Origin: Planctomycetota bacterium
GTDB taxonomy: Bacteria; Planctomycetota; UBA1135
Assembly: GCA_026421205.1 (NCBI GenBank)
Contig: JAPKBM010000001.1
Coordinates: 72,272-136,271, forward strand
DNA length: 64,000 bases
Direction: 5' to 3'
Under the pieces are notes generated by a model. It searched no databases and was not told the DNA's origin. It saw only the letters and a program-made list of their open reading frames with translations. The number at the start of each line of letters is the position of its first letter. Position 1 is the first letter of the stretch. Positions 778-19,861 of this stretch are shown here, one piece after another. The position numbers were made by a program, and so were the translations under genes.

Positions 778-819
778 GACGCACTACCATAGGACGTCCT
801 GCGCCCCCTCTCCACACCC

Positions 820-3260: not shown

Positions 3261-3265
3261 GCACT

Positions 3266-4147
3266 ATGAAATCCATCATCGGCGTTGACATCGGAGGGAC
3301 GGCCATCAAGGCAGGCCTCCTTTCTGAGCATGGTCTTCAGAAAAAACTTTCTGCGCCAAGCCCAAAATCAGCGGAAGACTTAGTGCGGGTCGTTATCCAA
3401 TTAACGCAGGAACTCCTCCCCGACCGCACTCCTTCTTGTTGCGGGGTTGCTGTTGCCGGGCTTTTATCGCCCGATGAGAAAGAGGTCCTTAATTCCCCCA
3501 ACCTTCGCTGGATCGAAAAATTTCCGCTGCAAGCCGCGCTCGCCGACGCCCTTGCTTGCCCTGTTTTTCTTGTCAATGACGCCACGGCAGCCGCACAAGG
3601 GGAAATTCGTTTTGGCATCGGAACCACCCATCCCAGTTTCCTTCTTGCCACACTGGGTACGGGCGTTGGCGGTGGCGTCGTTCTTGACGGAAAACTGTGG
3701 ACCGGGTCCGGAGGCTTAGCCGGAGAATTTGGACACATGAAAGTCGGCCATGAAGCCCGATGCACCTGTGGAACCATAGGTTGTCTTGAAGCTGTTGCAT
3801 CGGCGTCGGCCATGCAACGCCACGCTAAACAGGAAAATATTCCCGGTTCTCTCGCAGAGATTGCCGACACGGCGCGCCATGGAGACTCCAAAGCTAAATC
3901 TGTTTTCGAGCAAGCCGGGTCATACTTGGGCCAGGCCTTCGGCCAAGTTGCTCTCCTGATGGATCTTCGAGTTTTAGTTTTAGGCGGTGGGGCAGGCCCC
4001 TGTGCAGACTTACTCAGAGATGCGGCGTTGACCACCACCGCGAAGCAAGCATTTGGAAGAACCGTAGAAGACTTTTCCGTACTCGCTTCGCCCTTAGGAA
4101 ATGATGCGGGGGTCCTTGGCGCAGGTATATTCGCCTCAGAAACTTAA
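3266..4147 (+). CDS. ROK family sugar kinase (glucokinase-like)
   Basis: GVDIGGT, NDA, GTGVGGG, GEFGH, CTCGxxGCLE; start moved to ATG 3266. Confidence 0.9.
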   Translation: MKSIIGVDIGGTAIKAGLLSEHGLQKKLSAPSPKSAEDLVRVVIQLTQELLPDRTPSCCGVAVAGLLSPDEKEVLNSPNLRWIEKFPLQAALADALACPVFLVNDATAAAQGEIRFGIGTTHPSFLLATLGTGVGGGVVLDGKLWTGSGGLAGEFGHMKVGHEARCTCGTIGCLEAVASASAMQRHAKQENIPGSLAEIADTARHGDSKAKSVFEQAGSYLGQAFGQVALLMDLRVLVLGGGAGPCADLLRDAALTTTAKQAFGRTVEDFSVLASPLGNDAGVLGAGIFASET

Positions 4148-5424
4148 TCGTTCTCACTCAATAGAAACGGGCGAAGGTGGGCGAGAGCCAACAATACCTC
4201 CTTCCAAGCATTTAATTGTGCAATCTCCCCATTCACCCAATCCGTGCGATACCGGAGGACCTCAGTAAGGGAATACTCACCAGCCTGATACTGCAACTCC
4301 GCGATATGAGTTTTCCTGCTTAAGGCAGGGATTACTTCTTCTTGAATTTTTTTCCACTGCTCTGAAGCAAGGGTGTAGTCCGTGTATCGCCGACGAAGCG
4401 CCATCCGCGTTTCCTGCAATTGCCACTGAACCTTTTGCATGGCCGCCGATGCCTCTGCGCTTTGCGCACGACTTTGCGCGGCGGCTTGACCGTTCCAGGG
4501 AAGCTCAAAAAAAACTCCTGCGTCCAAGGCATGATGACCGGTATCCGTCTTTCGATAGAATAGTTCAAGGTGAACCGCAGGAATCATCCGCGCTTCCGCG
4601 AGGTCGGCCTGAATCTTTGCTACTTGTGCTGAGGAAAACGCTTCGGCCAGCACGGGCACCTGTTCCAGGCCACGAAGCAGAATTTCTAATTTTGGAAAAT
4701 CAACAACTTCCTCAACATCCCCTCGAAGGACGAAGGACGAAGTGGAGATATTCAAAAAAAGTGCGAGGTCACCTAGCGCAATCTGATGGCGTCGGCGAGT
4801 TTCATCAAGAATGGATGCTTGCCGGAACTGCTCCATCTTCGCATCCTCCCACGCCCCACCGATTTCCTCCCCAGATTCCACAAGAGCCTCCTGCAGCTCG
4901 CTTTGTTTTTTTGCAATTTCAACTCGATGTTCTTGGAGCACAACTACTTCCTGAAAAACCAACGCCGACGCAAACAAACCGCGAACCCTCGAATCCAACT
5001 CTAGCGTCAAAAAGGCTTGGCGATGCTGAAGAGAGCGAAGCTTCTCCTCTTCCAGGCGCTCCGTTTTTGACAGCACTCCGCCCAGAGGTATGGCTTGACG
5101 AACACCCAAAAGAACCTCTTCCTTTCCACCACTAGTCCCCAAGGGTAGACCCTCTGCCTTCCATCCGATTTCTGGATTCTTCCATCTTCCAGCCACGGAA
5201 AGACGCTCAATCTGTGCCTGCTTCTGATAAGCCATGGCCCGCAATGCGGGAGAGTTTTCCCGCGCTTTATGCAAGGCGTCAGCCAAAGACAAGGAACTTT
5301 GAAGCATCGGCCTCTCTGTTTCTTGATTGGAACTCCCCGAAAAGGAAGGGCGAAATTCCGCCGTCTCTTTCTCGGCGGATGCGCAAGCCAGGGCAATCAA
5401 AGGGAAGAGAAAAAGAACACGCAT
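4144..5424 (-). CDS. TolC/CzcC-type outer membrane efflux protein
   Basis: Lipobox IALAC, helical OEP pattern, YQAGEYSLTEVL; start 5424 overlaps the RND stop (TAATG). Confidence 0.85.
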   Translation of the reverse strand: MRVLFLFPLIALACASAEKETAEFRPSFSGSSNQETERPMLQSSLSLADALHKARENSPALRAMAYQKQAQIERLSVAGRWKNPEIGWKAEGLPLGTSGGKEEVLLGVRQAIPLGGVLSKTERLEEEKLRSLQHRQAFLTLELDSRVRGLFASALVFQEVVVLQEHRVEIAKKQSELQEALVESGEEIGGAWEDAKMEQFRQASILDETRRRHQIALGDLALFLNISTSSFVLRGDVEEVVDFPKLEILLRGLEQVPVLAEAFSSAQVAKIQADLAEARMIPAVHLELFYRKTDTGHHALDAGVFFELPWNGQAAAQSRAQSAEASAAMQKVQWQLQETRMALRRRYTDYTLASEQWKKIQEEVIPALSRKTHIAELQYQAGEYSLTEVLRYRTDWVNGEIAQLNAWKEVLLALAHLRPFLLSEND

Positions 5425-8400
5425 TAGGTAACCTCCAACTTTACGGGCCGGCCAAAACGTAAGTAAAGCGCTGGCACAACCATCATGTTGAGGAATGTCG
5501 AACTGATGAGACCAAACAAAATAACCCAAGCCATGGGTGTTTGGATTTCACTTCCCGGCTCTCCTCCAGCCATCGCCAAAGGAACCAAAGCCAAGCCAGA
5601 GGCAAATGCGGTCATTAAAATAGGAACGAGGCGTTCTGTGGAGCCACGGAAAACTGCTTCGTGAAGATCCCGAACCCCTTCATGGAGTTGCAGGTGGCGA
5701 ATATGGGAAACCAACATAATTCCATTCCTTGTGGCAATGCCGAACACCGCAATAAACCCAATGAGAGAGCCGACAGACAGGATTCCGTCGGCTAGCCAAA
5801 CCCCTGCAACACCGCCAATTAAAGCAAGCGGCAAGTTTGCCATGACAAAAAGCGCGTCACGGCCCGTCCCAAAGGCCATGCGTAATAAAAAGCCAATGCC
5901 TAAAATAATCGCCAGGCTTAAAAGAAGGATTCGTTTTTGCGCGGCCTCGGCGCTTTCAAACTGCCCACCGAACTCAACTCGATAGCCCGCTTCCCCGTCA
6001 AATTGTGGCTGAACGGCGCGACGAATGTCTTCCACCACAGCGATCAAATCTCGTCCAGAAACATTGCAAGACACCACCATTTTCCTTTGTAAATTCTCAT
6101 GAGTGATTTTGTTCGGTGTTGCGCTTCGAATGATTTTTGCCACCGCACCCAAAGGCACTACCGTGTCTCGCCCTCCAAGAACAGGGACACGGGAAATTGC
6201 AGAATGTGGCGGGCCCTCCATTTGCATGCGCAAAGTAACGTCAAAGGGAAAACTCCCCTCTAAAAGCTCTGTGGCCTTGTACCCCTGAACGGCTGCCTCC
6301 AATGTCGCGGAAGCCTCATGAGGAGAAACCCCCATGCGGCCCATTGCGGCACGATCAAACTCTATTTGCAACGAAGGAACGGCCGACTGCTGATCCATTG
6401 CCAGGTCCACCACGCCAGGAATAGGCTGCATCACCTCCATTGCCGCCTGAGCCCTCTCGCGCAGTTGCTGCAAATCTGATCCAAATATTTTCACGGCAAT
6501 CGCGGCGCGTGTTCCAGAAAGCATGTCATCAATGCGGTGTGAAATGGGTTGGCCAATCGTAAAAACCATGCCAGGAACCATTTTCAACTTTTTCCGTAAT
6601 TCTGCAAGAAAGTCTTCGCGAGAACGATCTTGCATAGAAAGCCGGACCTCCAATTCAGTCACCTCTACCCCTTGGGCATGCTCGTCCAGTTCGGCTCTTC
6701 CCGTGCGCCGGGCAACGGAAACCACTTCGGGGAATGCAAGAAGAGTTTGGTCCACAAGGCCTCCGAGTTGATTACTTTGTTCTAATGAAGTCCCAGGAAG
6801 GGTCACCGCGGCGATGGTCAATGCCCCCTCTTGAAATTCCGGAAGAAAAGATCGGCCCAACGGAATCAGTGCGAACACTGCAAGAGAAAAACAAGCCAAA
6901 GTAGGGCCGAAGGAAGTCCAGGGTCGCTGAAGGACAGGGAGAAGTAGTTTCTTGTAGGTGTTTTTCAGCGCAGAAATATGCCTTGCCTCCTTGGGCGCCT
7001 TAGAATGCGGAATGAGCAAAGAGCACAATACCGGGGTAACGGAAACCGCCACAAGCAAGGATGCCGACAAGGCAGAAACGTAGGCTAAACCGAGTGGCTG
7101 AAGAAGGCGGCCTTCCACGCCCGACAAGAAAAAGAGCGGAAGGAAAACCAGAATGATAATGAGCGTGGCGAAGACAATAGATGATCGGATTTCCAAACTT
7201 GCATCACAAACGACTCGCAGGGAACCTCGCTGTTGTTCCTTGGGCAAAGTAGAATTTTCGCGAAGTCGGCGAAATACATTTTCAACATCAATCACCGCGT
7301 CGTCTACCAGCGCACCAATAGCAATGGCCATTCCGCCCAGAGTCATCGTATTGATTGTTCCGCCCAGAGCATCTAACACAAGGACGGCGCCCAACAAAGA
7401 AAGAGGAATGGCCGTCAATGTGATGAACGTTGCCCTTAGGTTAAGCAAAAATAAAGCCACAATGAAGGCCACAAGCCATGCGCCATCACGCAGTACCCTG
7501 AGCATATTCTCCAGAGCGGTTTCAATGAAGTCAGCCTGACGAAACAGGTCTCGATGCAAGGTCACTTGCGGGGGTAGCTGCGTTTGGATCTCATCCAAGA
7601 TCTCATCCAGCCTCCGAGTTAAATCCAAAGTATTCACGCCCGGTTGTTTTTGAATGCTAATCACCACCGCGGACTCTCCTTGCACTGCCGCCATCCCCCT
7701 TGCAGGTCGTTCGCCGACTCTTACCTGTCCAAGGTCACGAACTTGAACCGGTACCCCATCACGACTTTCCAAAGTCAGCATGGCGATGTCCTCCGTATTT
7801 CTAAACCGGCCAACTCCAGTGACTAAATATTCACTTCCTCCTTGTGCAATAAATCCAGCCGGAATATTGGCATTGGCTACTTGAAGCGCTTCCGCAACCT
7901 GAGTAATCGTAATTCCATACGTTTCAAGACGTATAGGGTCAAGCCAAACTTGATATTGCCGTGCGCCCCCACCCATTGCGGTTACTTGGGACACACCGGG
8001 AACCGCTAGAATCCTTCGGCGCAAGACAGTGTCTGCAAACGTGCGGGTAGAAAGAAGATTTCCCGCCTCAGAGGTTAATCCGAGAAACAGAATTTCTCCC
8101 ATGATGGAAGAAATTGGGGCAAGAACAGGCTCTCCGGTTTGTTCTGGAAGGGCGTTTGCAACGAGGCGCAACTTCTCTGTAACGATTTGTCGTGCACGAA
8201 AAATATCAGTGCCCCATTCAAACTCTGCCTTCACAATAGAAATCCCCACGGCACTACTGGAGCGCACCCGGCGGATTCCAGATGCTCCATTCAGGCTAGA
8301 CTCAATGGGGAAAGTCACCAAGCTCTCCACTTCTGTCGAAGCCATGCCCGGTGTCTCCGTAATCACCGTCACAGTGGGCGCAGTTAAATCAGGGAAAACA

Positions 8401-8507
8401 TCCATGGGAGCCTGGAGTGCTGTTTGCCAGCCCCAAACAGAACAAGCCAAGGCGCAAACCAAAACTACCGCTCGGTTACGCAGTGACCAACGAATGAAAA
8501 AGTCCAT
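5424..8507 (-). CDS. CzcA/CusA family heavy-metal efflux RND permease
   Basis: DVFPD, VESLVTFPIE, GALVDDAVIDVEN, RLVPILMTA; 1027 aa. Confidence 0.95.
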   Translation of the reverse strand: MDFFIRWSLRNRAVVLVCALACSVWGWQTALQAPMDVFPDLTAPTVTVITETPGMASTEVESLVTFPIESSLNGASGIRRVRSSSAVGISIVKAEFEWGTDIFRARQIVTEKLRLVANALPEQTGEPVLAPISSIMGEILFLGLTSEAGNLLSTRTFADTVLRRRILAVPGVSQVTAMGGGARQYQVWLDPIRLETYGITITQVAEALQVANANIPAGFIAQGGSEYLVTGVGRFRNTEDIAMLTLESRDGVPVQVRDLGQVRVGERPARGMAAVQGESAVVISIQKQPGVNTLDLTRRLDEILDEIQTQLPPQVTLHRDLFRQADFIETALENMLRVLRDGAWLVAFIVALFLLNLRATFITLTAIPLSLLGAVLVLDALGGTINTMTLGGMAIAIGALVDDAVIDVENVFRRLRENSTLPKEQQRGSLRVVCDASLEIRSSIVFATLIIILVFLPLFFLSGVEGRLLQPLGLAYVSALSASLLVAVSVTPVLCSLLIPHSKAPKEARHISALKNTYKKLLLPVLQRPWTSFGPTLACFSLAVFALIPLGRSFLPEFQEGALTIAAVTLPGTSLEQSNQLGGLVDQTLLAFPEVVSVARRTGRAELDEHAQGVEVTELEVRLSMQDRSREDFLAELRKKLKMVPGMVFTIGQPISHRIDDMLSGTRAAIAVKIFGSDLQQLRERAQAAMEVMQPIPGVVDLAMDQQSAVPSLQIEFDRAAMGRMGVSPHEASATLEAAVQGYKATELLEGSFPFDVTLRMQMEGPPHSAISRVPVLGGRDTVVPLGAVAKIIRSATPNKITHENLQRKMVVSCNVSGRDLIAVVEDIRRAVQPQFDGEAGYRVEFGGQFESAEAAQKRILLLSLAIILGIGFLLRMAFGTGRDALFVMANLPLALIGGVAGVWLADGILSVGSLIGFIAVFGIATRNGIMLVSHIRHLQLHEGVRDLHEAVFRGSTERLVPILMTAFASGLALVPLAMAGGEPGSEIQTPMAWVILFGLISSTFLNMMVVPALYLRFGRPVKLEVT

Positions 8508-8516
8508 CTTTTTTCC

Positions 8517-10073
8517 CTAGTGAGAATGTTCCGGAATCGTTCCGGATAGAGAAACCAAATACACCACATAAGCACCATCAATAACCACGTGTTCCCCGGC
8601 CGATAAGCCCTCAAGAATCTCTGTCCGGTCTCCGTCGGGCACACCCATGCGCACCGGGCGACGTTCAAAGGATTCTCCGCCGGTCTGCACAAAGATGACC
8701 GAAATGCCAGCATCCTGCACGATTGCCGAAGAAGGAATAATTAAACCCTGGCGAGGAAAGTCAGTTGAGATTTGAGCGGGCAACGTCATGCCCGCACGCA
8801 ACCACCCTGGATTTGGTATTTCAAAAAGAACTTCGGCAGAGTGGGTCACCGGATGAACTTTTGGCGCCGAGAGCAACAACTCCCCTTCGGGACCCGGAAG
8901 AAAAAGTGCGGGTTCACCTGGAATGGGGTGAGAAATCTCCGCCTGCAAGGATTGTCCAAGCTGAGGAAGATCCGCCTCGGACACGCGAATCGAAACGTGA
9001 AGTTGACTCAGGTTTTGAAGGTAAAAAAGTGGCTCCCCAGACAGTGCCCACTCACCGCTCGCCGTTGGCGCTTGAATCACCTGCCCTGTAATTGGCGCAA
9101 GTAACAAAATTTCCATGGAAGAGCCGGGGGTCGCTTGTGTCCAGGCAGAAAAAATCTCCCCCGCGGCGTCATGAGCAACTTCGGCCCGGCGCAAGGCATA
9201 CTCTGCTTCTTCCAAGTCCTTTGCTGACTTCGCCTCTTGGGCGTACAAAGACTCAACACGCGCGAATGCCGCAGTCATCTGCGTTCGTTCCGCTTGGGCG
9301 CGTTTCACCTCTTGTTTCGCCGACGCCACCGAAGCCTTGTACTCAATGGCGCTCGCGCCGACCAAAGGGATTTTCAAGGTAGCCAAAATGTCTCCGGCCT
9401 TTACCTGCTGCCCAAGAACCGTTCGTGGAAGCGAGGGGGGGGGTAGCAATATCCCCGAAACAGGCGCGGGGACTTTTGCCGTGTGAGTGCGGCATGTCGT
9501 AACGCGTGCCGTTGCTGGAATGCGCTGAGAATATTCTTGGGTTCTTGCCGTCTCTACTCTTAAACGCACTGGCCATTGCTGTTCCTTCAACATGGTGATG
9601 CCTTTCCCTCCCCCTTCCGCCTCACCTAAGGATGCCCGCAAATCAGATTCATTAAAGAAAATGGAAATGGCCTCTAAAGGAGAGGAATCGCCCTGATAGG
9701 ACGCGGTCCAAGACCAAGAACCTTCCGACGGAAATTCAACGTGCGCCAAATAGATTCCCGACCGACTGGGGGAAGGTACCTCCACATTCAATATTTGATC
9801 CGCGTTTTGGAAGCGCAATTGCAACGCCCCCTCTGTGATTGGGGAGCCGTCGGCAAGGCGAGTGACATGCAACGCAAACGAGGTGGGCCGCCCCACGACC
9901 CCACCCTCATTCTCAAAAAAGAACTCGTGGTGTTGGGTCCAGATGGTTTGCGCACGCGTGGGCCATTCTGCAGATTCTGGTTTTTCCGCAGGAGTATGAC
10001 TATGGGAGTGATTGCCGCAGCCCCAAAGGAACGCGGGAACAAGAAGAAAGAGAATGAAGCGAAGAACGGACAT
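8517..10073 (-). CDS. RND efflux periplasmic adaptor (CzcB-like lipoprotein)
   Basis: Lipobox LWGC followed by NHSHSH; APITG, LRAGM, GLSAGEHVVIDGA; C-terminal EHSH. Confidence 0.9.
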   Translation of the reverse strand: MSVLRFILFLLVPAFLWGCGNHSHSHTPAEKPESAEWPTRAQTIWTQHHEFFFENEGGVVGRPTSFALHVTRLADGSPITEGALQLRFQNADQILNVEVPSPSRSGIYLAHVEFPSEGSWSWTASYQGDSSPLEAISIFFNESDLRASLGEAEGGGKGITMLKEQQWPVRLRVETARTQEYSQRIPATARVTTCRTHTAKVPAPVSGILLPPPSLPRTVLGQQVKAGDILATLKIPLVGASAIEYKASVASAKQEVKRAQAERTQMTAAFARVESLYAQEAKSAKDLEEAEYALRRAEVAHDAAGEIFSAWTQATPGSSMEILLLAPITGQVIQAPTASGEWALSGEPLFYLQNLSQLHVSIRVSEADLPQLGQSLQAEISHPIPGEPALFLPGPEGELLLSAPKVHPVTHSAEVLFEIPNPGWLRAGMTLPAQISTDFPRQGLIIPSSAIVQDAGISVIFVQTGGESFERRPVRMGVPDGDRTEILEGLSAGEHVVIDGAYVVYLVSLSGTIPEHSH

Positions 10074-10141
10074 GGGATCTTAGGTGACTTGTTTTGACGA
10101 ATCTTCGCACAAACTTTGGCTTGCGAAAGCTGCGTCGGAAA

Positions 10142-10159
10142 CCGCGCCCGAAGGCACGG
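10142..10159 (-). promoter_or_regulatory. UUCG-tetraloop hairpin between the leader ORF and the efflux operon
   Basis: Minus strand CCGTGCC-TTCG-GGCGCGG (one G-U pair), 10 nt after the leader stop, followed by TTT. Confidence 0.5.
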
Positions 10160-10169
10160 ATGGGGAAAG

Positions 10170-10583
10170 TCACGAAAGCGGTGGACCGCGGTACCGTTGT
10201 AGGCCTGACAGCCTGAGCTCTTTCGGGTTAGACAAAAAGTGGTGTGCTCGACGGCACGCGCTAAACCTGTCTACAAAGACGAAAGAAGCCGAAGGCGCAA
10301 TGGGTGAGATCCTCTGCGTGCTTTCTTTGGTCTGTTTCCCGGGAAGGGCAAACCATGCATGTTCCGCAACTACATGAAATAGCTCTGCGGGAGCATCCCC
10401 TGACATTGGGTCAATCTGCTGATCGACGTGAGCCCCTTCGTGAGAATGCGCCACGCTCATGTGATGATCACTCGCAAGATGCCAAGGCAATATCAGAACA
10501 AAGGCCGACACAAATAACGTTGCCAAAAACCATATTTGGCGACGAAATTGTGGACTAGGGATTTGAACGGAGACGGTCGACAC
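10170..10583 (-). CDS. His-rich exported/membrane leader protein ending RGPPLS (DUF2946/CruR-like putative arrest peptide)
   Basis: GTG 10583 with TACACT 8 nt upstream; RR plus hydrophobic helix, WHLASDHHMSVAHSHEGAH, terminal YRGPPLS; directly upstream of the metal RND operon. Confidence 0.65.
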   Translation of the reverse strand: MSTVSVQIPSPQFRRQIWFLATLFVSAFVLILPWHLASDHHMSVAHSHEGAHVDQQIDPMSGDAPAELFHVVAEHAWFALPGKQTKESTQRISPIAPSASFVFVDRFSACRRAHHFLSNPKELRLSGLQRYRGPPLS

Positions 10584-10588
10584 GAGAT

Positions 10589-11755
10589 TTAAGTGTACAG
10601 GGCCGAAGAACGGTTTTTCCGAATTTTTTCGAGCCGTGCCGCGACGTCGGCGCGACGCTTTTGAAACAACGAGGGGTTCAAACAAAGCGTGGCAATCCAC
10701 AAGACAAGGGCTTCTTGGTCTCCTCGGTCAATCTCTTCTGCACGGGGGCCCTGACAAGTTCGGTCATCGGGAACATTGTGATAATTCCGCAAGGGCATCG
10801 CCAAACAAACTGCCCGTCGACCGTCGGCACACAAAGCAGTTGCTTCGCAGGACCCGCCGTCCATGAGTTTTCTTTGCCACTGGAAGCCGGGAACTTTTTT
10901 CTCTAACTCTAGGGCCGCCAAACGAAGGGACTCGCAAAGTTCTGCGTCAAACACAGAAGACCTATCCCCTACACGAAGAACGGGTCCGTCTCCGGGCAAT
11001 GCAGATGGAAGTTGAGGGGAACACTCCAAAACAATCGTCGGAGTGTCCGGCGAAAAACTTCCAAGGCGCAAACCCTCGAGGCAACCCACAAAACCATTTT
11101 CCTCACACCGCGTAAACCAAGCTTGAACAGGGCGATCCAGGCCATTCTTCTGCGCCAGCGCCATGCTAGCCAAAATGGTTGCCGCGCCAGCAAGATTGTC
11201 ACAGACCACATTACGAATTGTCTTTTGAGTCAGGCCATAGGGCACGTCCCATTCTCCAAGCCATCCCCCCTGAACTTCTCCCCTGCCCATCATTTTTAAT
11301 TGAAGAGGAAGTCGGCCGGTCTTTGCATCTTTTTTCCCGACGCCCACGACTTCCGCGCGCAAAGGACCATCCCCTGATTCAGGGTGAAATAAACGAACTT
11401 TCCCGCCAACCATACGACTCCCTGGGTGCCCTCCATAAAACGCGGCGTGAACCAACCCTTCTTCGGTCACGCGCTCCACCTGCATCGCTGGATGGTCCAA
11501 GTGAGCCAACAACGCTACCGACGGCTTTCCACGCTTCTTTCCAGGAACGGTGACGATTAAATTTCCGGCAGCGTCTGCCTTCACCTTCCAATCATGCTCT
11601 TTCGCCCATTGCCAAATAAAAGCAAGGGGAAGATTCTCTACATAAGGCGCCGTTGGGCAGCGAAGGAGCGAAAGCGCGGGTTCGGCAAAAGGGCGAACCG
11701 ATTTTTTCTGCCAATCCTTTGAGCGCGCACCACGGGGAAGTTGGAGGGATGCCAT
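10589..11755 (-). CDS. M42/M20-like dinuclear metallohydrolase
   Basis: DAAGN, AHLDH, CDNLAG, RCEE, DGGSCEA, NYHN. Confidence 0.75.
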   Translation of the reverse strand: MASLQLPRGARSKDWQKKSVRPFAEPALSLLRCPTAPYVENLPLAFIWQWAKEHDWKVKADAAGNLIVTVPGKKRGKPSVALLAHLDHPAMQVERVTEEGLVHAAFYGGHPGSRMVGGKVRLFHPESGDGPLRAEVVGVGKKDAKTGRLPLQLKMMGRGEVQGGWLGEWDVPYGLTQKTIRNVVCDNLAGAATILASMALAQKNGLDRPVQAWFTRCEENGFVGCLEGLRLGSFSPDTPTIVLECSPQLPSALPGDGPVLRVGDRSSVFDAELCESLRLAALELEKKVPGFQWQRKLMDGGSCEATALCADGRRAVCLAMPLRNYHNVPDDRTCQGPRAEEIDRGDQEALVLWIATLCLNPSLFQKRRADVAARLEKIRKNRSSALYT

Positions 11756-11805
11756 TCCCTCAAGATACTGAATCGGTCAAGCTCGTGGGCCAGGGAACAC
11801 GGAAC

Positions 11806-13059
11806 CTAATATAAGTTCAAGTGCCCGGGACTATAGTTGGGAAAGAAACCCTTTGGAGGCTCAAACCCAAGACTGCCGTGGAGAACTTCGGCCAATACAT
11901 CTCGGAAATCTGTGGTGACGGCCAAATCCCGGCCTTGATACAGCCCATCAGAAGTCAGACTCCTCCACTTTCCGTGAATTCGGCCGCCGCGGACACCACC
12001 ACCCAACACAAACATGCCCCCACCATGGCCATGGTCCGTGCCACTGTTTCCATTTTCCCGGAACGTGCGGCCAAATTCCGTCATCACAAGAATTGTCGTC
12101 GTATCGAGAATGGAACCGAGGTCGTCACAAAATGATTTTAGAGAATTTCCAAGATCCGCCAGGCGTGTATGGTGATTTCCCTCCACACCGCCTTGGCCTG
12201 CATGATCGTCCCAACCGCCATAATCTAAGCCAACAATTTCCAATCCTGAGCCGGATTTCAAAACCTTTGCGATGGACTGCAGCTTCTTTCCAAAATTTCC
12301 GCTTGGGTACTTCACACTAGACGTCCCTTTTTCCAGCAGATCCTGATACCGCCGAAGGGTTTCAATGGTCACTTTTCCAGACTTCACAACAACGTCTCCG
12401 TCTCTATCCATCATGGAATCGTCACCCTCCATCACGCCTCCGCCGACCCCATAGAATTCTTCAAATCGACTCAGCGTTTTTGCCCCCCTCTTTTTCTCCA
12501 TGGAACGGGGTACAGCGAGAACCGGGTAATTCCCTCTCAAGGAACGAGGGAGAAGTTTCTCCAAAGCCATCGCCCTAAACTCCGATGCGCCCTTCTTCTG
12601 CGTTGCCGCCAAGTATCGGTTTAGCCAGCCTGTGCGCACCGACCGATCTCCTGGCGCGGCAAATTCCATGAAGTCCTGCGCATCGAAGTGAGAACGTGTG
12701 GTGTGGGGAGATCCCACCATGACCACCGGAGCAAGTTTTTTTGACTTCCAAAGGCTTTCCCAAGCAGAGAGCCCAGGGTGCAGTCCAAATTTTGAATCCA
12801 ACTCCACCACACCATCTTCTTTGCGCAATCCAATGGTTGGCCGCGCCGAATGATAAGCATCATCTCGATAAGGAACGATCATGTTGAGAAAATCAGCACC
12901 ACCACGAAGATAAATGCACACCAGAGATCCCGGCTTTTTCTTTGTCCAAGAAAAAGACGAGCGAGAAAGAGCAAGGCTGGACGGACAAAGTGTAAATCCA
13001 GCCGTCAAACCTGCAGTTCGCAAAAAATCTCGGCGAGAGGGAGAATGATTACTTTTCAT
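11806..13059 (-). CDS. DUF1501 protein, Tat-exported
   Basis: SRRDFL; LRGGAD, SHFDAQ, GGWDDH, TEFGRT, GTDHG; start 13059 in ATGA overlap. Confidence 0.9.
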   Translation of the reverse strand: MKSNHSPSRRDFLRTAGLTAGFTLCPSSLALSRSSFSWTKKKPGSLVCIYLRGGADFLNMIVPYRDDAYHSARPTIGLRKEDGVVELDSKFGLHPGLSAWESLWKSKKLAPVVMVGSPHTTRSHFDAQDFMEFAAPGDRSVRTGWLNRYLAATQKKGASEFRAMALEKLLPRSLRGNYPVLAVPRSMEKKRGAKTLSRFEEFYGVGGGVMEGDDSMMDRDGDVVVKSGKVTIETLRRYQDLLEKGTSSVKYPSGNFGKKLQSIAKVLKSGSGLEIVGLDYGGWDDHAGQGGVEGNHHTRLADLGNSLKSFCDDLGSILDTTTILVMTEFGRTFRENGNSGTDHGHGGGMFVLGGGVRGGRIHGKWRSLTSDGLYQGRDLAVTTDFRDVLAEVLHGSLGFEPPKGFFPNYSPGHLNLY

Positions 13060-14612
13060 TGCTGCTGAAACTCCGGAGAACCCAAAAGAAGGCCGACAAG
13101 CTCGGGACCCAGAACCCTGGAATCTGGAACCCGCGCCTTCGCCAAGTATTGGTTGGTGATCGTGGAGAGCGCATTGCGCGTGCGCTTTCCAGCGCCGGAA
13201 GGCACAAGATACTCCGTCAAATAGTGTTGCCAAAGCCGGGGGACCTCTTGGGGGAGGCTGTCGTAATAGTTTGGAGGAATTTCTATCCCCTTTACTTTTC
13301 CGCCAGCAAGGCCTAGCGCAAATTCCCAGCGAAGAGCCATCACCCCTGGATCCAGCCACGACTCGGCCGTGTCGTAGTAGCCTGTAGGATCATCGCAGTG
13401 ATAGATCGGTTGCCCCATATCCATCAAGGCGCGATGCACCTTAGAGAAATCTGAGATCTCAACGTTTAAAGCACGAAAGGCACTCATAACGAACTCATAA
13501 GGCGTTTTAAATTTCGCCCGATAATGCTCACGGCTCCAAAATTCTTCCGAAGCAACCAAAGATTGAATCATGGAAGGGACATTACCCTTAGTCTTCTTGT
13601 AAGCCTTGGTGAGGCGTTTCACCAGAGAAGGAGGTGGGACGTCGGCGACAAAAAACCGAGCCAACTTCATGGATACAAACGCTGCAGTTCCTTTATGCCT
13701 AGCTAGCATCTGAACCATGGCCAAACCCTGCGCTTGAGGGTTCTCCTTGTCCTCCTTAAAGATTTTTCCCAATAACCTTTTGTCACCAAAAGCATGCATA
13801 TCCTTCCGAAACTCAAAGGTATGCGTACCTCGAGATCCCCCGCTAAACGTCCAACCGGTCAGGGCCCCGGCTAATGCGATGACATCTTTTTGTTTGTAAT
13901 AATTGTCAACCCCTAAAGTGTGGAGTTCCATGATCTCTCTCGCATAATTTTCATTCAGGCCTTTCTGACCTGCAATCGTGGCCGCCTCTTCTCCCTGCGA
14001 ACGAGAACCTGTCCGCCGGCGAACACGACGCTCCACGTCTCTCAGCTCTTGTTCCGTTGGCGGCTTACGAGAAAGATGATTGTCCAAATAATGAAGCATG
14101 GCGGGATGCTCCGCCGAAGCCATCAACATGTCCTCAAAATTTCCAAGCGTGTGCCGACGCACCACCGTGCGCTCATAGTCGCTGATTAAAATTCTCGCTT
14201 GATTTCCTTTTGTAAAGCTTACGTTCAAATGGTTCCGCCAAAAGTCACAAAGCACCTCCTCCAACTGCCGCTCTTTCTCTACGGCACGTCGAACCAAGGC
14301 CTGACTCAATTGCTTCCGAGGAATATTCTGGCGCTCCCTTGCCTTGCGGCGCGCCTCTTCTGATCCATCGTTTTCCTGATCCACTTCTGTGTACTCAAAA
14401 CATTCATGAGGCGTTAGGTCCAGCGTTTCCAATTCTTTCAACTGAGCGGTCAATGCGCGGTTGGGCTCAGGCGCTGACGACAACTGCTCTTCCAACCAGG
14501 CTTTTTCCCCCTGCTCAAGAAGCATGTCCAAGTCCTCAGGACGAGGCCCGTAAGCAAACCGATTCAATAAATGAATTGCTCGCTCTTTTCGGCTGAGTGG
14601 CTCCATGGACAT
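13056..14612 (-). CDS. DUF1800 protein
   Basis: HLLNRFAYG, FWRNH, PAMLHYLDN, NENYAREIMELHTLG, SPEFQ. Confidence 0.92.
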   Translation of the reverse strand: MSMEPLSRKERAIHLLNRFAYGPRPEDLDMLLEQGEKAWLEEQLSSAPEPNRALTAQLKELETLDLTPHECFEYTEVDQENDGSEEARRKARERQNIPRKQLSQALVRRAVEKERQLEEVLCDFWRNHLNVSFTKGNQARILISDYERTVVRRHTLGNFEDMLMASAEHPAMLHYLDNHLSRKPPTEQELRDVERRVRRRTGSRSQGEEAATIAGQKGLNENYAREIMELHTLGVDNYYKQKDVIALAGALTGWTFSGGSRGTHTFEFRKDMHAFGDKRLLGKIFKEDKENPQAQGLAMVQMLARHKGTAAFVSMKLARFFVADVPPPSLVKRLTKAYKKTKGNVPSMIQSLVASEEFWSREHYRAKFKTPYEFVMSAFRALNVEISDFSKVHRALMDMGQPIYHCDDPTGYYDTAESWLDPGVMALRWEFALGLAGGKVKGIEIPPNYYDSLPQEVPRLWQHYLTEYLVPSGAGKRTRNALSTITNQYLAKARVPDSRVLGPELVGLLLGSPEFQQQ

Positions 14613-14690
14613 TATTCCCATCCTAAGACAAAACCCCAAGAGCAGGCACAAGTTTCGTGGAAAGATTACCGCTTGAGGCGGAAAGCGATT

Positions 14691-16724
14691 TTATAGAAAA
14701 CGAAGATCAAGGGCAAACCGTGGGTCCATGGGGAGGAGGATTTCCGCACCCCCGAGGTCACCCACTACGGTGCTTCCCTTCCACGTCCAGGCGTAATCAA
14801 CGCCATTCGAACTTTTGAGCTCCAGGTCCATTTCCACGTGCACCCTCTCCCCAGGATTCCCAGAAAAATGGTGGGGAAATCCGCCCGTGTATTCCCATAT
14901 CAAACAGTACGGAATTGGAGACGGCAGCCTCTCATCTTCATCCAGCCAAGGGGATACATACCGAAGTTGAAAAATAGCGGGCGCCGTTTCCGGGTGCGCG
15001 AGACGCTCTAAAAGTGTCCGATCCATGCTGCCCCATGGCGCCCCACCATTCGCCTTTGCTAAATCTTTCGCCAACAAAGGGAGTCGGCTTTCGCGAAAGA
15101 TAAACCGAACCTTGCGCTCTTTCAGTATTTTTTCCGCCTGAGCCACTTCGGTCGCCAAATAAAATCTCGCCGCATCCCGATAACTATCTTCGCCAACGTA
15201 ACTCCCAAAATTTGTTCCGACGCTACCAACCTCGGCAACCCACTCTAAAGCATGTCCAATATCCCAAGGGCCTAGCCCGGAATGCGCCGACGTGCCCAAG
15301 GCTAAGGAAGCTGTCCCCTCCTGCCCTACCCACTCCAGCGCATCTCGTGTGGCCGCCGACCTCATGGATTGCGTCCACGGTCCTTGCCAATCCACGGAGA
15401 TAAATGCTGTAAGGCCGACTAAACCCGCGAATCCCACCAAAGAGCGCCTCTTTAAAACCTGCGTCAGCCACAAAGTAACGACCACGGCAATAGGCCCCAC
15501 GGCAAGATCACTAAAGCGGCGCTGAAGAAGAGCCTGCAAGATAACAACAGGAAGGATCACCAACCAAATCCGTAGCGCGGGACGATGCACTCGAAGAAAC
15601 GCCGTCCAGGCAAGAGGCGTCAACAAAACGGCAAGGCCCAGCCAACGCAAAACACCACCGGTCCCCGTCTGATCCGCGCGATAGAGCGGTTCCGATTCTG
15701 CAATGCCCGCCATAAATTCATTCCCCCGCGAAATCCATTGAAGCGCCTCTTGCATGCCCTCTCCTGGCCCCCAACGAAAGAGCCAAAGTAGAACGGCAAT
15801 ACTGAACGCAATCAAAGCAGACTGACGCGGTTTTTTGCTCCAAAAAATAAACGCGCCACCAAGGAGATAGAGCAAATGAAACCACGAAAGGTTCACAAAC
15901 ATCCATGGAGAATCTATCTTCCAGGGACTGGCAATAACTGCGGGAAGAACAGTCAACGCGGCGACCCCATGAAACCAAAGAGCAAAAGTGCGCGATTCAG
16001 TTTTCCTCTCTGCAAACAAGGACCAAAGAAGTGTCGCTTGCAACAAACCAATCGATAGCAAGGAAGGCACCCATGACCCCAGAAGAATTCCGGCAATGAC
16101 ACCGGAGAAAATCCCTGTTAAACGCATGCGTTTCTGGCTACTCGAGTCAAGCCATGCCCAAGAAGCAATGCCCCAAAGAAGTGTTGTGAAAAATGCCACA
16201 AACGCATGATGGTCGGCAACACCCCAGGCCGAAGTGTGCACCGATCCATAAGTCAATGCATGGAGAAGCCCAGCCGCAAGTGACGCGTCGGGTCGACGGG
16301 AAAGAAGAAAGACAATGCCTGCAATCAAACACGAAGTTAGAATTCCAAAAAGAAGGGGGATCGTTGCAACCCAATGCTCCACGTCGGCCTTTTTAGGCGA
16401 GTTGGGAAGAAAAACGCGTGCGGTTTGTAAAAGAAAAAAGTCGTAATAACTCGGCCATGGAATTTTTGCGCCGTACGGGTAATTCATCTGAGGGTCCTCC
16501 GAAGCAACCCCTCCTTCCCCTAAGCCTCGTGCAACTCGCCGCGCATGATAAAGGCCATCGGCATCTACACTGAACCAGCCGGTTTGCACTATTTGGCCGG
16601 GAAGTCGCTCCATACGCTGATCCTGCTTGACGCGCACCCAAAGACTTGCGCACAAGACCAGCCCAATCACCCCCACGAGAGACCACGGAAATCCACACCT
16701 CGCCGGAAGAGAAATGAGTTTCAA
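14691..16724 (-). CDS. AglB/STT3-like oligosaccharyltransferase
   Basis: Polytopic membrane protein with DGLYHARR, DPQMNYPYG, ADHH, GIAE (TIXE-like), QRRF, PWDIGH (WWDYG-like). Confidence 0.75.
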   Translation of the reverse strand: MKLISLPARCGFPWSLVGVIGLVLCASLWVRVKQDQRMERLPGQIVQTGWFSVDADGLYHARRVARGLGEGGVASEDPQMNYPYGAKIPWPSYYDFFLLQTARVFLPNSPKKADVEHWVATIPLLFGILTSCLIAGIVFLLSRRPDASLAAGLLHALTYGSVHTSAWGVADHHAFVAFFTTLLWGIASWAWLDSSSQKRMRLTGIFSGVIAGILLGSWVPSLLSIGLLQATLLWSLFAERKTESRTFALWFHGVAALTVLPAVIASPWKIDSPWMFVNLSWFHLLYLLGGAFIFWSKKPRQSALIAFSIAVLLWLFRWGPGEGMQEALQWISRGNEFMAGIAESEPLYRADQTGTGGVLRWLGLAVLLTPLAWTAFLRVHRPALRIWLVILPVVILQALLQRRFSDLAVGPIAVVVTLWLTQVLKRRSLVGFAGLVGLTAFISVDWQGPWTQSMRSAATRDALEWVGQEGTASLALGTSAHSGLGPWDIGHALEWVAEVGSVGTNFGSYVGEDSYRDAARFYLATEVAQAEKILKERKVRFIFRESRLPLLAKDLAKANGGAPWGSMDRTLLERLAHPETAPAIFQLRYVSPWLDEDERLPSPIPYCLIWEYTGGFPHHFSGNPGERVHVEMDLELKSSNGVDYAWTWKGSTVVGDLGGAEILLPMDPRFALDLRFL

Positions 16725-19700
16725 AATCTTAATGAGTAAACGACTTTCAAGGCCAAATCACTAGAAGTTGGAATCCAAACACTTCCGATCTCCTCCCGCC
16801 ATCCTGTATTCAGTACAAAAAATAATTCTTGCCCATCTTGCTGCATCCAACGCATTCGACTTTGCGCACCGAGCTCGTCTGATTGATTGTCGTATTGGAT
16901 AATATTTTTCCAACTCCAATCTGGAGAAAAAAACCAATCCACATCTGCGGAAACGACGCGGCTGGAAAAATCCCCTGCGGCGAGAAAGGCTTGGCTTTCT
17001 GAATAATCCAAGGCCATTCTGGAATGGGCGCTTGGTCGCCAAGAAAGTTCGAGGCCAGCCTTGGCCAACGTACCGTCATACCAAGTGCCAAATCCCCCAC
17101 CAACTTCCCATGCGAAATCTTCATTCATAGGAGACTCCCATGCAACTTCGGTATTCCACCAATCATGCCAACCAAGAGAAACCGGAATGTTGCCTGGGGC
17201 AAAGGAATCTGAGGTAACCCGGTCGCCTGCAATTTTCATGTCCCAACCAAATCGTGAACCATCATGCCATTCCATTCCGAGCAAATCCAACTTCACCTGA
17301 TGAGACATCACTCTTTTGTCTCCGTCCACCCAAACCGAGGGCCTGACTGAAAACGTATATCTCCGGACATCCCCCGAGCTAGGCCGGGGCTCCCAAAAGA
17401 AGCGTCCCTTCACAAGCGCTTGGCCAGGCCGACGGACATAACCCATGCCAGGATGAAATCGGCCCATAGCCGCAACCGTTTCCACGCTCATGTGTAAATC
17501 TTTCAGCCGAAGAGCTGCCTTCACCCCTGCGGCACCACCAATCTCTCCCGCCTCCTCATCATTACTTCGCACGAGCCAGGTGTTCCATGAAAAAAGGCCC
17601 GGAAACCATTCGGTATTAGAGTGCCGCCAGTCAAAGCCGGTCACCACATTCGAAGAAATGGAACCGGGATTCCCTGACGTCAACAGAGCTCCCACGGATG
17701 TTGTGGAATTCACATTCCAATTGGGTCGAAAGACCAAGAGATCTCCATCGGTTTGCGGAGAATCGTCCGTCGGCCCCGTATGAACCGCAAGCACCCCAAG
17801 GTCAAATTCCCCCATACGCCCGGTTAAACGAGCACCAGATTCCAAGGGAACTTCATTGCCACCGGAAAGCCCAATCGCCCGACTGTAAAAAGGAATGACT
17901 GTGTCGCTACCGCGCCAACCACCACTCGCACCAAAAGAAAAAAGTGTCGAATCCTCCAGGAAGAAATCTCTCTTCTCTGGAAAAAATAGCGAGTATTGCG
18001 TGAGGTTCACCCTTCGGTCATCAATTTCCGTCTCTGCAAAATCCGTATTTCGAGTAAAGCTTGCCTTCAACTGCGGCGTAATCCACCAATCAAATTCACC
18101 GCCCATTCCGGAAAGCCAGTCACTTTCTCCTCCATGCACATCGGTGCGTTTCGCCTTAATGTACGGCCGAAACTCAAGACCTAAACCTTGGTCGATTTCG
18201 GCGAAGCCTGTCATCTGGCCTGCTTGACTCACATTCATCACCCAATACTGACGCAATGGATTTGCCCAACGCCATTTTGTCCGAGAAGACCCACGGTACC
18301 TTTCAAAATTTATTCCCCACCGACCGGTTTCCCCTGCAGCAATCGTCTGGAAAGGGATTTCAATTTCTGCCGTCCAACGGTCTTCCCCCACCAGCGTCCG
18401 CCCTTGCCAAACGCCGTCCCATTGTTTATTAAAACTTTTGCCGTTCGCGCCAATCAAGCCGTCCCCTCTAGACCCTGCTGCGGACACCTGAAAAAAGTAT
18501 GCGTTTTTCCCATCTAAAAACGTGTCCAAAACAAACTCCACACGATCGTCCTCCCTCAAAAAGGCGTCTCGTTGCATTTGCTGAATGACCATGGAATCTG
18601 GATCTGGCTCCATGCAAACAAAGCCGACGTAAAGGGCTTTTTCCGTCCGCATCAACCAAACTTCCGTTTCTGGGTCTGGGTCGGCCCCCTCCACAGGAGT
18701 GACCTCTTTAAAGCCACGCAACTTTGTCGCCGACGCCCAAGAATCCTCGTCAAGCACTCCGTCCACCTGAGGGGGAACGTCAACATGAGGAACGTGAAAT
18801 TCTTGCGCAGTGACCAAACGGGCATCGGCGAAGAAAGCTGTGACGATGAGTACGAAAGGGGTTAACAGGCGGAATATTTTCCGTGTGAGACCCGTCAAGG
18901 GAACAGATTGGGGGTTCACAAGGGTCTCCTTTGAATCAGGTGGCAAGCGATACACATCGGCGGTGATTTTATGGTGCGTAATGGTATGGCGCACCGTGCC
19001 GAGGTGTTCCTGAAGGGTGCCTAGTTTAGAATGTTGTTTCAGCCAAGAGTCCGCGGCATTCGCTGCATTCACGGCCCCTGAAGAAAGCGTGACCATGGGA
19101 GGTTCCCAGAACCCCGTATTCCAGCCCTCGGATCGCTGATAAAGAAGACACTCATTTTCATCCCCCTTCAATCCAACTGCAAAATGAAGACGTGTCCAAG
19201 ATTTCTTTTTTGCAGCTACCGGATAATCTTGTGGTGATTCCGCGGTGCAGAAATCAGAAACCGGACAATTTTCACACTGCGGGGCTCGCGGTGTGCACAC
19301 GGTGGCACCTAATTCCATGATGGCTTCATTCAATTTCCCCGGTGCAGCAGGTCCGCGCGCATCCATCCAGGCCTGCGCCCAAATCTCTGACGCTTTATGC
19401 AGAGCCGTTGAGCCCGCAGGATGCAATAAAGACTGTTGACGCGCCGCAACCCTCTTGACATTTCCGTCCACCACAGCAATCGCTTCTCCGTTCACAATGG
19501 AAGCGATGGCCGCCGACGCATACCCACCCACCCCAGGAAGACGCTTCCACTCCTCCGCGGTGACGGGGTATCCATCTCCCCCTTCCACCACCATTTTTGC
19601 CGCCTGATGTAGCATTCGTACCCGTCGGTAGTAACCAAGGCCCGCCCAAATTTTTAAAATCTCTTCCTCTGAAGCCGCGGCAAAAGACTCTGGGGAAGGA

Positions 19701-19861
19701 TACAAATCCATAAAACGGAGCCAATAAGGGATCACCGCCTCCACACGCGTTTGCTGCAGCATGATTTCAGAAACCCAAACCCCCCATGAATCTTGCGACT
19801 TCCGCCAAGGCAGGTCCCTTTTCTTTTGTGAAAACCAATGAAGAAGCTGGCTTACCGGCAT
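16721..19861 (-). CDS. mutY: In-frame fusion: MutY adenine glycosylase (aa 1-~335) + signal-like helix + CBM9-like/DUF5916 outer-membrane protein
   Basis: VSEIMLQQT, GLGYYRR, HhH, VDGNVKRV, CTPRAPQCENCPVSDFC, HTITHH; then VDGVLDE..W, NTDFAETEID, NLTQYSLFFPEKRDFFLE and terminal KVVYSLRF. Confidence 0.85.
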   Translation of the reverse strand: MPVSQLLHWFSQKKRDLPWRKSQDSWGVWVSEIMLQQTRVEAVIPYWLRFMDLYPSPESFAAASEEEILKIWAGLGYYRRVRMLHQAAKMVVEGGDGYPVTAEEWKRLPGVGGYASAAIASIVNGEAIAVVDGNVKRVAARQQSLLHPAGSTALHKASEIWAQAWMDARGPAAPGKLNEAIMELGATVCTPRAPQCENCPVSDFCTAESPQDYPVAAKKKSWTRLHFAVGLKGDENECLLYQRSEGWNTGFWEPPMVTLSSGAVNAANAADSWLKQHSKLGTLQEHLGTVRHTITHHKITADVYRLPPDSKETLVNPQSVPLTGLTRKIFRLLTPFVLIVTAFFADARLVTAQEFHVPHVDVPPQVDGVLDEDSWASATKLRGFKEVTPVEGADPDPETEVWLMRTEKALYVGFVCMEPDPDSMVIQQMQRDAFLREDDRVEFVLDTFLDGKNAYFFQVSAAGSRGDGLIGANGKSFNKQWDGVWQGRTLVGEDRWTAEIEIPFQTIAAGETGRWGINFERYRGSSRTKWRWANPLRQYWVMNVSQAGQMTGFAEIDQGLGLEFRPYIKAKRTDVHGGESDWLSGMGGEFDWWITPQLKASFTRNTDFAETEIDDRRVNLTQYSLFFPEKRDFFLEDSTLFSFGASGGWRGSDTVIPFYSRAIGLSGGNEVPLESGARLTGRMGEFDLGVLAVHTGPTDDSPQTDGDLLVFRPNWNVNSTTSVGALLTSGNPGSISSNVVTGFDWRHSNTEWFPGLFSWNTWLVRSNDEEAGEIGGAAGVKAALRLKDLHMSVETVAAMGRFHPGMGYVRRPGQALVKGRFFWEPRPSSGDVRRYTFSVRPSVWVDGDKRVMSHQVKLDLLGMEWHDGSRFGWDMKIAGDRVTSDSFAPGNIPVSLGWHDWWNTEVAWESPMNEDFAWEVGGGFGTWYDGTLAKAGLELSWRPSAHSRMALDYSESQAFLAAGDFSSRVVSADVDWFFSPDWSWKNIIQYDNQSDELGAQSRMRWMQQDGQELFFVLNTGWREEIGSVWIPTSSDLALKVVYSLRF

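Follow-up and report, generated by a model that had tools for sequence, protein, structure and literature searches.

How is a heavy-metal efflux operon controlled when no metal regulator lies next to it? The question is raised by a 64,000-nucleotide stretch from a Planctomycetota bacterium of the lineage UBA1135 (contig JAPKBM010000001.1, positions 72,272 to 136,271), called the window below, in which a small open reading frame (ORF) stands directly ahead of an operon for a heavy-metal resistance-nodulation-division (RND) pump. A preliminary description had taken this ORF for a candidate metal-sensing ribosome-arrest leader of 137 amino acids (aa), with an Arg-Arg pair and a hydrophobic segment, a His cluster, a terminal RGPP and a gap of 96 nt to the operon. 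All of these features are present, on the minus strand, the description having given no strand. We consider it probable, with real room for doubt, that the ORF is a cis-acting leader of the RAPP/RGPP arrest class which controls translation of the RND operon. On sequence grounds it belongs to a family of His-type leaders that are anchored by a transmembrane (TM) helix, end in RGPP or RAPP and are specific to RND efflux operons in Planctomycetota. The parts of the leader are as follows.

10170..10583, minus strand: leader ORF, 137 aa, GTG start, TGA stop, C-terminus ...LQRYRGPPLS-stop
10470..10553, minus strand: predicted N-terminal TM helix, residues 11-38, the hydrophobic stretch after R14-R15 (AlphaFold2 and family-conserved hydrophobicity)
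10461..10487, minus strand: motif 1, PWHLASDHH, residues 33-41, where the TM helix ends on the outer side; P33, H35 and H41 invariant (n = 19)
10359..10376, minus strand: motif 2, HVVAEH, residues 70-75, H-x3-[ED]-H in the family; H70 invariant (n = 19)
10260..10310, minus strand: linker segment of moderate hydrophobicity, roughly residues 92-108, at 24-40 residues ahead of the arrest Arg (family hydropathy hump)
10179..10196, minus strand: putative arrest motif R130-Y-R-G-P-P135; R130, R132, G133, P134 and P135 invariant in the close clade

Conserved parts of the leader family

A single ORF with such an end is not rare. In the same genome, 18 of 16,048 stop-to-stop frames of at least 60 aa end in R[GA]PP, and the leader itself gave no Pfam or NCBIfam match; both points would fit an ORF that arose by chance and is no gene. 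Conservation across relatives is the decisive evidence against chance. The 17 other frames (contigs C58, C86, C11 and others) carry RGPP or RAPP within their last 10 residues, as in ...QGPRAPPLLD on C58, and are probably non-coding for the most part.

A direct protein search with the leader returned one near-identical fragment only (P0002, 95% identical, with five residue differences, none in motif 2 or RGPP). Among 61 related genomes, homologs (E ≤ 1e-3) were found in 7 other genomes. Six of these are complete ORFs ending in LRGPPLS or LRGPPLA; the seventh, in genome G006, is 64 aa long and lacks the motif. Identity to the window leader within this close clade is 25-34%. In an alignment of seven sequences R14, F24, P33, H35, H40, H41, H70, E74, L80, R130, R132, G133, P134, P135 and L136 are invariant, and with 19 sequences P33, H35, H41, H70, P134 and P135 still are. 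A search with a four-sequence alignment added only two metagenome loci, of which one yielded a usable new sequence, and none from genomes. A profile search of 1.84 billion representatives gave 17 clusters, 16 of which end in R[G/A]PP plus 2-3 residues. Counting the own genome each time, homologs occur in 14 of 339 order-level genomes and, with a wider profile, in 15 of 401 genomes sampled across the phylum; the phylum-level loci other than the own one all (14/14) end in R[G/A]PP plus 1-4 residues. The same architecture in all three collections refutes a chance ORF, to which we now give next to no weight.

The family architecture begins with a basic N-terminus and a TM helix, followed by P-x-H-[LMI]-x-x-[ED]-H-(H), a stretch rich in His, Asp and Glu that differs in length among members, H-x3-[ED]-H, the variable linker, (R)-x-R-[G/A]-P-P and a short tail, RGPP and RAPP being interchanged across the family. 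In the window leader the His cluster reads PWHLASDHHMSVAHSHEGAH, with HVVAEH further on. At the R-G-P-P codons of the close clade the third positions vary freely, so selection acts on the peptide. The preliminary description had proposed a comparison of the ORFs ahead of orthologous RND operons, and there as well as ahead of distant ones only the TM helix, the His motifs and R[G/A]PP are kept while the linker sequence varies. Judged from the alignments, this pattern is typical of an arrest leader.

The linker is kept in length and not in sequence. The measurement covers 40 distinct sequences, those whose motif 2 was picked up by a regular expression. From the first His of motif 2 to the Arg of R[G/A]PP the distance is 62 residues in 18 of the 40 and 59-65 in 33 of them. 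One sub-clade has 54, a few outliers are mis-assignments by the expression, and locus L039, by eye, also has 62. The window leader sits at the family mode (H70 to R132, 62 residues, i.e. 56 intervening). The distance from motif 1 to motif 2 varies from 10 to 78. When 41 sequences were aligned from the arrest Arg, the linker showed a hydropathy hump, with a mean Kyte-Doolittle peak of +1.1 at position -39 and positive values from -42 to -21; common residues are Pro at -7 and -12 and Arg at -2.

AlphaFold2, run with the family alignment, gave a helix at residues 11-38 with pLDDT 84-95 and an unstructured remainder at about 50-60. All beyond the TM helix was of low confidence, and no metal-site geometry was obtained. 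A linker fixed in length and not in sequence fits a ruler rather than a fold. The -3/-1 positions past the helix (WHLA, WHIA, VHMV) are by eye unlike a signal peptidase I site, so the segment is probably an anchor rather than a cleavable signal; by the positive-inside rule it is a probable N-in signal anchor.

Could the product instead be a stable small membrane or periplasmic accessory of the pump, a flux modulator like CzcI or a His metal chaperone, with RGPPLS as a motif of the protein? CzcI is a small exported protein encoded directly upstream of czcCBA and reported to quench CzcCBA activity (PMC10127602); the pMOL30 protein of Cupriavidus metallidurans has WHLGHHEH, resembling motif 1, as well as CGVC and a C-terminal ...NARAPD..., and the His motifs of the leader family are conserved, as such a role would ask. 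The resemblance is confined to the short WHLxxxEH, however. CzcI ends in ...NARAPDRPQWQRLA without PP, hhalign aligned it to the leader family with a probability of 1.4%, the model of the leader is unstructured past the TM helix and the linker is conserved in length only. An accessory role would also leave the interchange of RGPP and RAPP, the fixed tail of 1-4 residues and an RNA helix over the last codons (next sections) unexplained. We regard it as unlikely as the sole explanation, though an arrest leader and an accessory protein are not mutually exclusive roles.

Other searches with the leader gave little. No relative of the family was found among solved structures, and tblastn against a plasmid collection gave no match. 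Its ESM Atlas neighbours are unnamed hypothetical proteins and DUF6769 (0.95, with 124 shared features), a lead only. Sequencing runs that contain the stretch are marine or seawater metagenomes. The marine DNA runs show variants at 10191, 10261 and 10362; that at 10191 (G>A) is synonymous, Tyr131 changing from TAC to TAT, and adjoins the arrest motif.

The efflux operon downstream

The leader is separated by 96 nt from the ATG of the adaptor gene (10073), the first of three genes.

8517..10073, minus strand: RND periplasmic adaptor, a CzcB/CusB-like lipoprotein (TIGR01730, 127 bits; PF16576)
5424..8507, minus strand: heavy-metal RND permease of the CusA/CzcA family (TIGR00914, 749 bits)
4144..5529, minus strand: outer-membrane factor, TolC/OEP (PF02321, 70.5 bits)

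Against solved structures the permease scored 461 bits with CusA and 439 bits with ZneA, and metal specificity could not be decided from such pump scores. The adaptor opens with a lipoprotein-like signal (…LWGC) and a His-rich GNHSHSHTP; its relatives are alike, for example CGEHTHDSSNGHE. The longest TolC-like frame shares 106 nt with the end of the RND gene, and its true start is probably an internal codon downstream of the listed one. As the preliminary description had noted for the immediate surroundings, regulators are missing here: no two-component, MerR or ArsR family member was found among the ORFs scanned in 1-19861, two of which had no Pfam match.

The leader keeps this position in its relatives. 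At the order level the next gene downstream, on the same strand, is an adaptor homolog in 14 of 14 loci. At the phylum level (n = 14) the first downstream gene is an adaptor homolog in seven loci and an OEP gene in the other seven (czcCBA order). What lies upstream is not shared; the M42 peptidase gene that precedes the leader in the window had no homolog in 12 other loci searched, and in locus L051 the leader follows a divergent gene about 120 nt away.

Classical peptides of the RAPP type monitor the protein localisation machinery (PMC10987492, PMC12992588), and the family members have, besides their TM anchor, a hydrophobic hump conserved at 24-42 residues ahead of the arrest point. An arrest leader might therefore sense a non-metal cue such as Sec/YidC insertion capacity or envelope stress, with the His residues serving some other purpose. 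The loci speak against this. Among those examined with an intact leader (28 of 28), the operon downstream is one for tripartite efflux and in no case sec or yidC. The residues that do not vary are of a kind typical for binding metal (His, Glu/Asp), and His, Asp and Glu also abound between the motifs. A cue other than metal is improbable to our minds, a shade more so than the accessory role.

The link was also approached from the pump. A reverse search from the adaptor found a homolog at E ≤ 1e-40 in 17 of 49 family genomes. Upstream of it, 13 carry an R[G/A]PP leader (one cut by a contig end), one carries a truncated leader, two have none (G027 and G019) and one could not be assessed. In G006 (locus L028, contig C15, about 1474-1659, minus strand) the leader stops at 64 aa (...DAHHCATDDHDN), a natural truncation. 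The locus has no motif 2, no linker, no RGPP and no 5' strand for the RNA helix described below, yet retains the 3' strand (AAGTCAC...) as well as an intact adaptor, and its pump may be deregulated. In G027 (L089, contig C174) the orthologous adaptor at 1498-3066, minus strand, 51% identical, has no leader, and a divergent gene starts 26 nt upstream of it; G014 and G035, of the same genus, do carry the leader. The link between leader and pump is thus very strong and not obligatory.

Further upstream in the window lie a DUF1501/DUF1800 gene pair (11806-14651, minus strand) and, at 16721-19861 (minus strand), a 1046-aa protein in which an HhH-GPD/NUDIX_4 (MutY-like) N-terminus is joined to DUF5916.

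A predicted helix between leader end and adaptor start

The region from the last 33 nt of the leader through ATG+12 of the adaptor was folded for the window and its relatives. The elements in the window are the following.

10167..10178, minus strand: predicted helix 5' strand CTTTCGTGACTT, i.e. CTT (Leu136), TCG (Ser137), TGA (stop) and CTT, three further nt (folds, covariation, duplex energies)
10079..10090, minus strand: predicted helix 3' strand AAGTCACCTAAG, 12 nt ending 5 nt before the adaptor ATG (folds, covariation, duplex energies)
10142..10159, minus strand: predicted internal hairpin CCGTGCC-TTCG-GGCGCGG in the intergenic region, at the same place in 8 related intact loci

In the minimum free energy (MFE) folds of all nine intact close-clade loci, the Leu-Ser/Ala-stop codons and 3-4 further nt are paired over a long range with the region just 5' of the adaptor start, one or two internal hairpins being enclosed. 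Within a 251-nt context of the window the helix is kept in both the MFE and the centroid structure (z = -2.33; 2 of 200 shuffles fold as well). In an alignment of eight sequences 80.4% of the helix cells are paired; shifting the 3' strand by 1-3 columns lowers this to 23-45%. Both sides have changed in 5 of the 12 helix pairs, and the covariation score is 0.256 compared with 0.161 in shuffles, 1 of 500 of which reached the observed score. The duplex energy was better than that of 1000 shuffles of the 3' segment at each of the nine loci (p = 0.001-0.028).

The compensating changes can be read from the codons. Loci with a TAA stop carry TTA opposite, and TGA is paired with TCA. In the CTC-TCC locus CTTTC/GAAAG has become CTCTC/GAGAG, and in loci that end in an Ala codon (GCT, GCG) GCTTT/AAAGC has become GCTTG/CAAGC. 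The Leu codon is CTT in eight of the nine close loci, and the sole CTC is the compensated one. For the translation branch of the preliminary proposal, which had left open whether translation or termination of the pump operon is affected, this covarying helix from leader end to adaptor start supplies a concrete mechanism.

A second helix recurs beside it. The window fold also pairs the G of the adaptor ATG and UCCGUU with leader codons 129-131 (AACGGUAC), and in G008 GCGGAC, from the Arg-Gly-Pro codons, is paired with GUCCGC just past the AUG. No family in Rfam matched 9800-10900.

A stall at the leader end could in principle act on transcription, as in CruR, where an upstream ORF works through Rho-dependent termination between itself and the next gene (PMC9426467). 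The stalled ribosome would then shield the RNA from Rho or block an attenuator, and the helix over the ribosome-binding site (RBS) would be secondary. The intergenic region does open with a C-rich stretch, CUUUCCCCAUCC, a stable hairpin stands about 10 nt past the stop in every close locus, and in several distant loci (L040, L047, L037, L039 and L049) a strong local hairpin takes its 5' arm from the Pro codons, tail and stop. The terminator scan, however, found no terminator-like site in the intergenic region and did not flag the internal hairpin, rut sites are not recognisable with the methods used, and the covarying helix joins the leader end precisely to the adaptor initiation region. Control at the level of transcription appears unlikely, if the least so of the alternatives weighed here. 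The local hairpin of the distant loci starts 14-18 nt after the stop, for instance CCUCCCAUGGC...GCCAUGGGAG in L047, and may be a different read-out of the stall.

The frame of the leader is open up to 10700, its far part overlapping the upstream M42 peptidase gene (10589..11755). One candidate promoter element lies close to the start.

10592..10597, minus strand: -10-like hexamer TACACT, starting 14 nt before the leader GTG; TAnnnT at a like position in relatives

In the close clade 8 of 8 loci have a TAnnnT hexamer whose first base stands 8-18 nt ahead of the start codon, against a background of 0.005-0.139 per locus for such an 11-nt window, a figure that flatters the result in that the position window was picked after looking. 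The candidate -10 of the preliminary description is to this extent matched in relatives, and its position suggests that the leader mRNA is leaderless or has a very short 5' untranslated region (UTR). Weak evidence of expression comes from contigs of two metatranscriptome libraries, which cover parts of the stretch only and are identical to the window. One of 174 nt spans 10034-10207, that is, the adaptor start, the entire intergenic region and the last 38 nt of the leader; the other, of 151 nt, matches 10384-10515 inside the leader.

A possible switch and its known counterparts

The proposed arrest leader is built on the observed anatomy and conservation of the ORF, its length ruler, the covarying helix and the link to RND operons; a stall at RGPP would follow from published work on RGPP/RAPP, and the topology and metal binding of the leader are likewise put forward conditionally. 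The leader would have a promoter of its own and an mRNA whose 5' UTR is very short or absent. Its signal anchor would be inserted co-translationally in the N-in orientation, placing motif 1 (PWHLASDHH) at the periplasmic face, while the His/Asp/Glu-rich chain is threaded through the translocon. The ribosome would then stall at R-Y-R-G-P-P, its P site occupied by Pro134 and its A site by Pro135.

The footprint of a ribosome reaches roughly 12-15 nt 3' of the first P-site base. In the stalled state just described it would take in the span Pro135-Leu-Ser-stop, the Leu-Ser-stop codons being the 5' strand of the helix, so the adaptor initiation region would be held open and the pump would be on. 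This placing of the two prolines agrees with toeprints on CruR, in which the third and fourth residues of RAPP sit in the P and A sites (PMC12992588). At the stall H70 of motif 2 would be 64 residues from the peptidyl-transferase centre, just outside the membrane. With about 30 residues in the tunnel and about 17 needed to cross the membrane, figures quoted in PMC9973294, motif 2 would stand some 15 residues past the membrane, from where it could reach back to motif 1. When metal is absent, translocation of the linker or its hydrophobic partitioning into the membrane would pull on the chain and release the arrest, the helix would re-form and the pump would stay low. A metal of the Zn/Ni/Co/Cu(II) type, with His/carboxylate ligands, would bridge motifs 1 and 2; the pull would be lost and the stall prolonged, a direction taken by analogy with CutF.

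Several points weigh against this proposal. A consensus scan requiring both a -35 and a -10 found no site in 9900-11200, hence no full promoter of the sigma-70 type, and the leader starts with GTG only 5 nt past the stop of the upstream gene. The RNA-library contigs may be DNA carry-over and cannot prove a single transcript. Pump loci without an intact leader exist (G006, G027), which makes the leader dispensable for having the pump. No more than 8-9 sequences, all related, underlie the helix, and coding too constrains its 5' strand. No comparable RBS-sequestering helix was demonstrable in the distant GC-rich members; the scan of 19 such loci was uninformative, with strong duplexes everywhere and uncertain downstream start codons. 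Folding induced by metal could, moreover, strengthen the pull and so end the arrest, which for an efflux pump would be regulation of the wrong sign. Stalling, metal binding and regulation are argued for the leader family by analogy.

A bolder and more doubtful version, which we advance tentatively, is a ruler sensor that needs no regulator. The anchored chain would clamp the metal between the outer end of the TM helix and motif 2, 62 residues before the arrest, and the occupancy of this clamp by periplasmic Zn, Ni, Co or Cu would be translated, as the ribosome stalls, into opening of the helix over the pump's start site. This His class would have arisen apart from DUF2946 and CutF, sharing with them the arrest motif only, and would be, for many Planctomycetota, the chief route to inducing heavy-metal RND pumps with no two-component system.

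Heavy-metal RND pumps are textbook cases of control by two-component or MerR-type systems. If the proposal is true, such pumps would be switched by a nascent peptide alone, in a phylum where gene control has received little study. The family, a compact one, offers three separable handles, namely the His motifs, the 62-residue ruler and the covarying helix, which bear on how a ligand outside the membrane signals to the ribosome, a question that CutF and CruR pose as well.

Among known systems, SecM-secA shares the logic. There, an exported leader arrests close to its C-terminus, and a helix that otherwise hides the next initiation region is opened. SecM differs in having RAGP within a longer arrest sequence and in sensing SecA activity, not metal. 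The czcI gene of pMOL30 (L099:25176-25523, plus strand) reads like a decayed version of the same theme, with a signal peptide, WHLGHHEH, CGVC and ...NARAPD..., in which RAP is followed by D and not P.

The leader carries the marks of RAPP-like arrest peptides, R-[A/G]-P-P near the C-terminus (RGPP, then LS-stop) of a small membrane protein upstream of, and on the same strand as, a candidate regulated gene. ApdA, ApdP and ApcA and the RAPP/RGPP survey of Fujiwara et al. (2024, PMC10987492; 2025, PMC12992588) describe this arrangement for small secretory or membrane proteins; the cases tested in these reports differ in lying upstream of sec/yidC or Streptomyces genes. According to the later report RGPP and RAPP are robust arrest cores refractory to EF-P, and small ORFs for secretory or membrane proteins before metal genes are enriched in them at the C-terminus; metal-related downstream genes with His/Cys sensor candidates are noted, although 'efflux' and 'RND' occur 0 times in its main text (PMC12992588).

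CruR of Bordetella pertussis (DUF2946; Roy et al. mBio 2022, PMC9426467) is likewise an upstream ORF with an N-terminal export signal and RAPP three residues from its end; it heads a metal operon, has little predicted structure and keeps a tight spacing between metal motif and arrest motif. It differs in its CXXC, its 45 intervening residues, its TonB-dependent uptake gene and a signal peptide that is dispensable, and Cu there relieves the arrest, upon which Rho terminates (PMC9426467). The leader described here has His ligands, one Cys and no CXXC, 56 intervening residues, an efflux operon and an RBS helix. This fits the preliminary view of a variant with His in place of CxxC. PF11162 (DUF2946) gave no match to the window ORF at E up to 1, nor to anything in its genome at E up to 10, and the invariant ligand candidates are His. 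Of 19 family members one passes the PF11162 cut-off of 23.7 bits (P0012, 26.5 bits) and two fall below it, and in a local hhalign comparison with 16 planctomycete DUF2946 proteins only 17 C-terminal columns could be aligned, with a probability of 93.6%. By these profile comparisons the family is not a demonstrable member of DUF2946. The two classes occupy different loci in the same 401-genome sample, the phylum-level DUF2946 loci (L059-L079) having CxxC plus R[A/G]PP. The CxxC proteins keep a narrow ruler of their own, 47-52 residues from the first Cys to the Arg in 16 of 16, which agrees with the 45 intervening residues of CruR (PMC9426467), and rulers of 62 and 48 residues in the His and CxxC classes of one phylum make a natural comparison.

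Novelty was overrated in the preliminary description. CutF-like leaders with a Pro motif before OEP, ACR_tran and HlyD_D23 genes, and His-only clusters, had been reported (PMC9973294), as had RAPP/RGPP ORFs before metal genes (PMC12992588); what stands is the His-type RND variant of Planctomycetota. A full-text literature search found no paper that ties RAPP/RGPP arrest to an RND metal pump apart from a general discussion in the CruR paper, and published supplementary lists may already hold the planctomycete cluster. Ozturk et al. (mBio 2023, PMC9973294) describe 5,334 CutF-like proteins in 29 clusters, with OEP, ACR_tran and HlyD_D23 (RND efflux) as the commonest downstream neighbours. In the account given there, the His-only clusters 14 and 17 adjoin HupE/UreJ and not RND pumps, CzcI is without a Pro motif, and phyla besides Pseudomonadota, Actinomycetota and Bacteroidota make up a minor share.

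Another close counterpart is CutF of Rhodobacter capsulatus (PMC9973294, 10.1101/2025.02.05.636593). It too is a small ORF for an exported product that leads a metal-detoxification operon, with an exported ligand motif, a C-terminal Pro motif and a short structured intergenic region that shields the next initiation region, and metal is proposed to prolong the stall and turn downstream translation on; Cu-induced stalling of CutF melts a stem-loop over the cutO RBS (10.1101/2025.02.05.636593). Measured by the rule set of PMC9973294, the window leader is under 150 aa, has PP within its last 15 residues (134-135 of 137) and is followed on the same strand after a short gap (96 nt), and in the close clade the predicted covarying helix takes the place of the intergenic stem that shields the downstream initiation region. 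By these rules the family looks CutF-like except for an N-terminus that resembles an anchor and not a cleavable signal. CutF has a cleavable signal peptide, CxxxC, PPP and 45 residues between metal motif and Pro motif, whereas the leader has an apparently uncleaved TM anchor, two His motifs, RGPP/RAPP and the 62-residue ruler. The family thus looks like a planctomycete variant of the CutF/CruR type, CutF-like in its logic.

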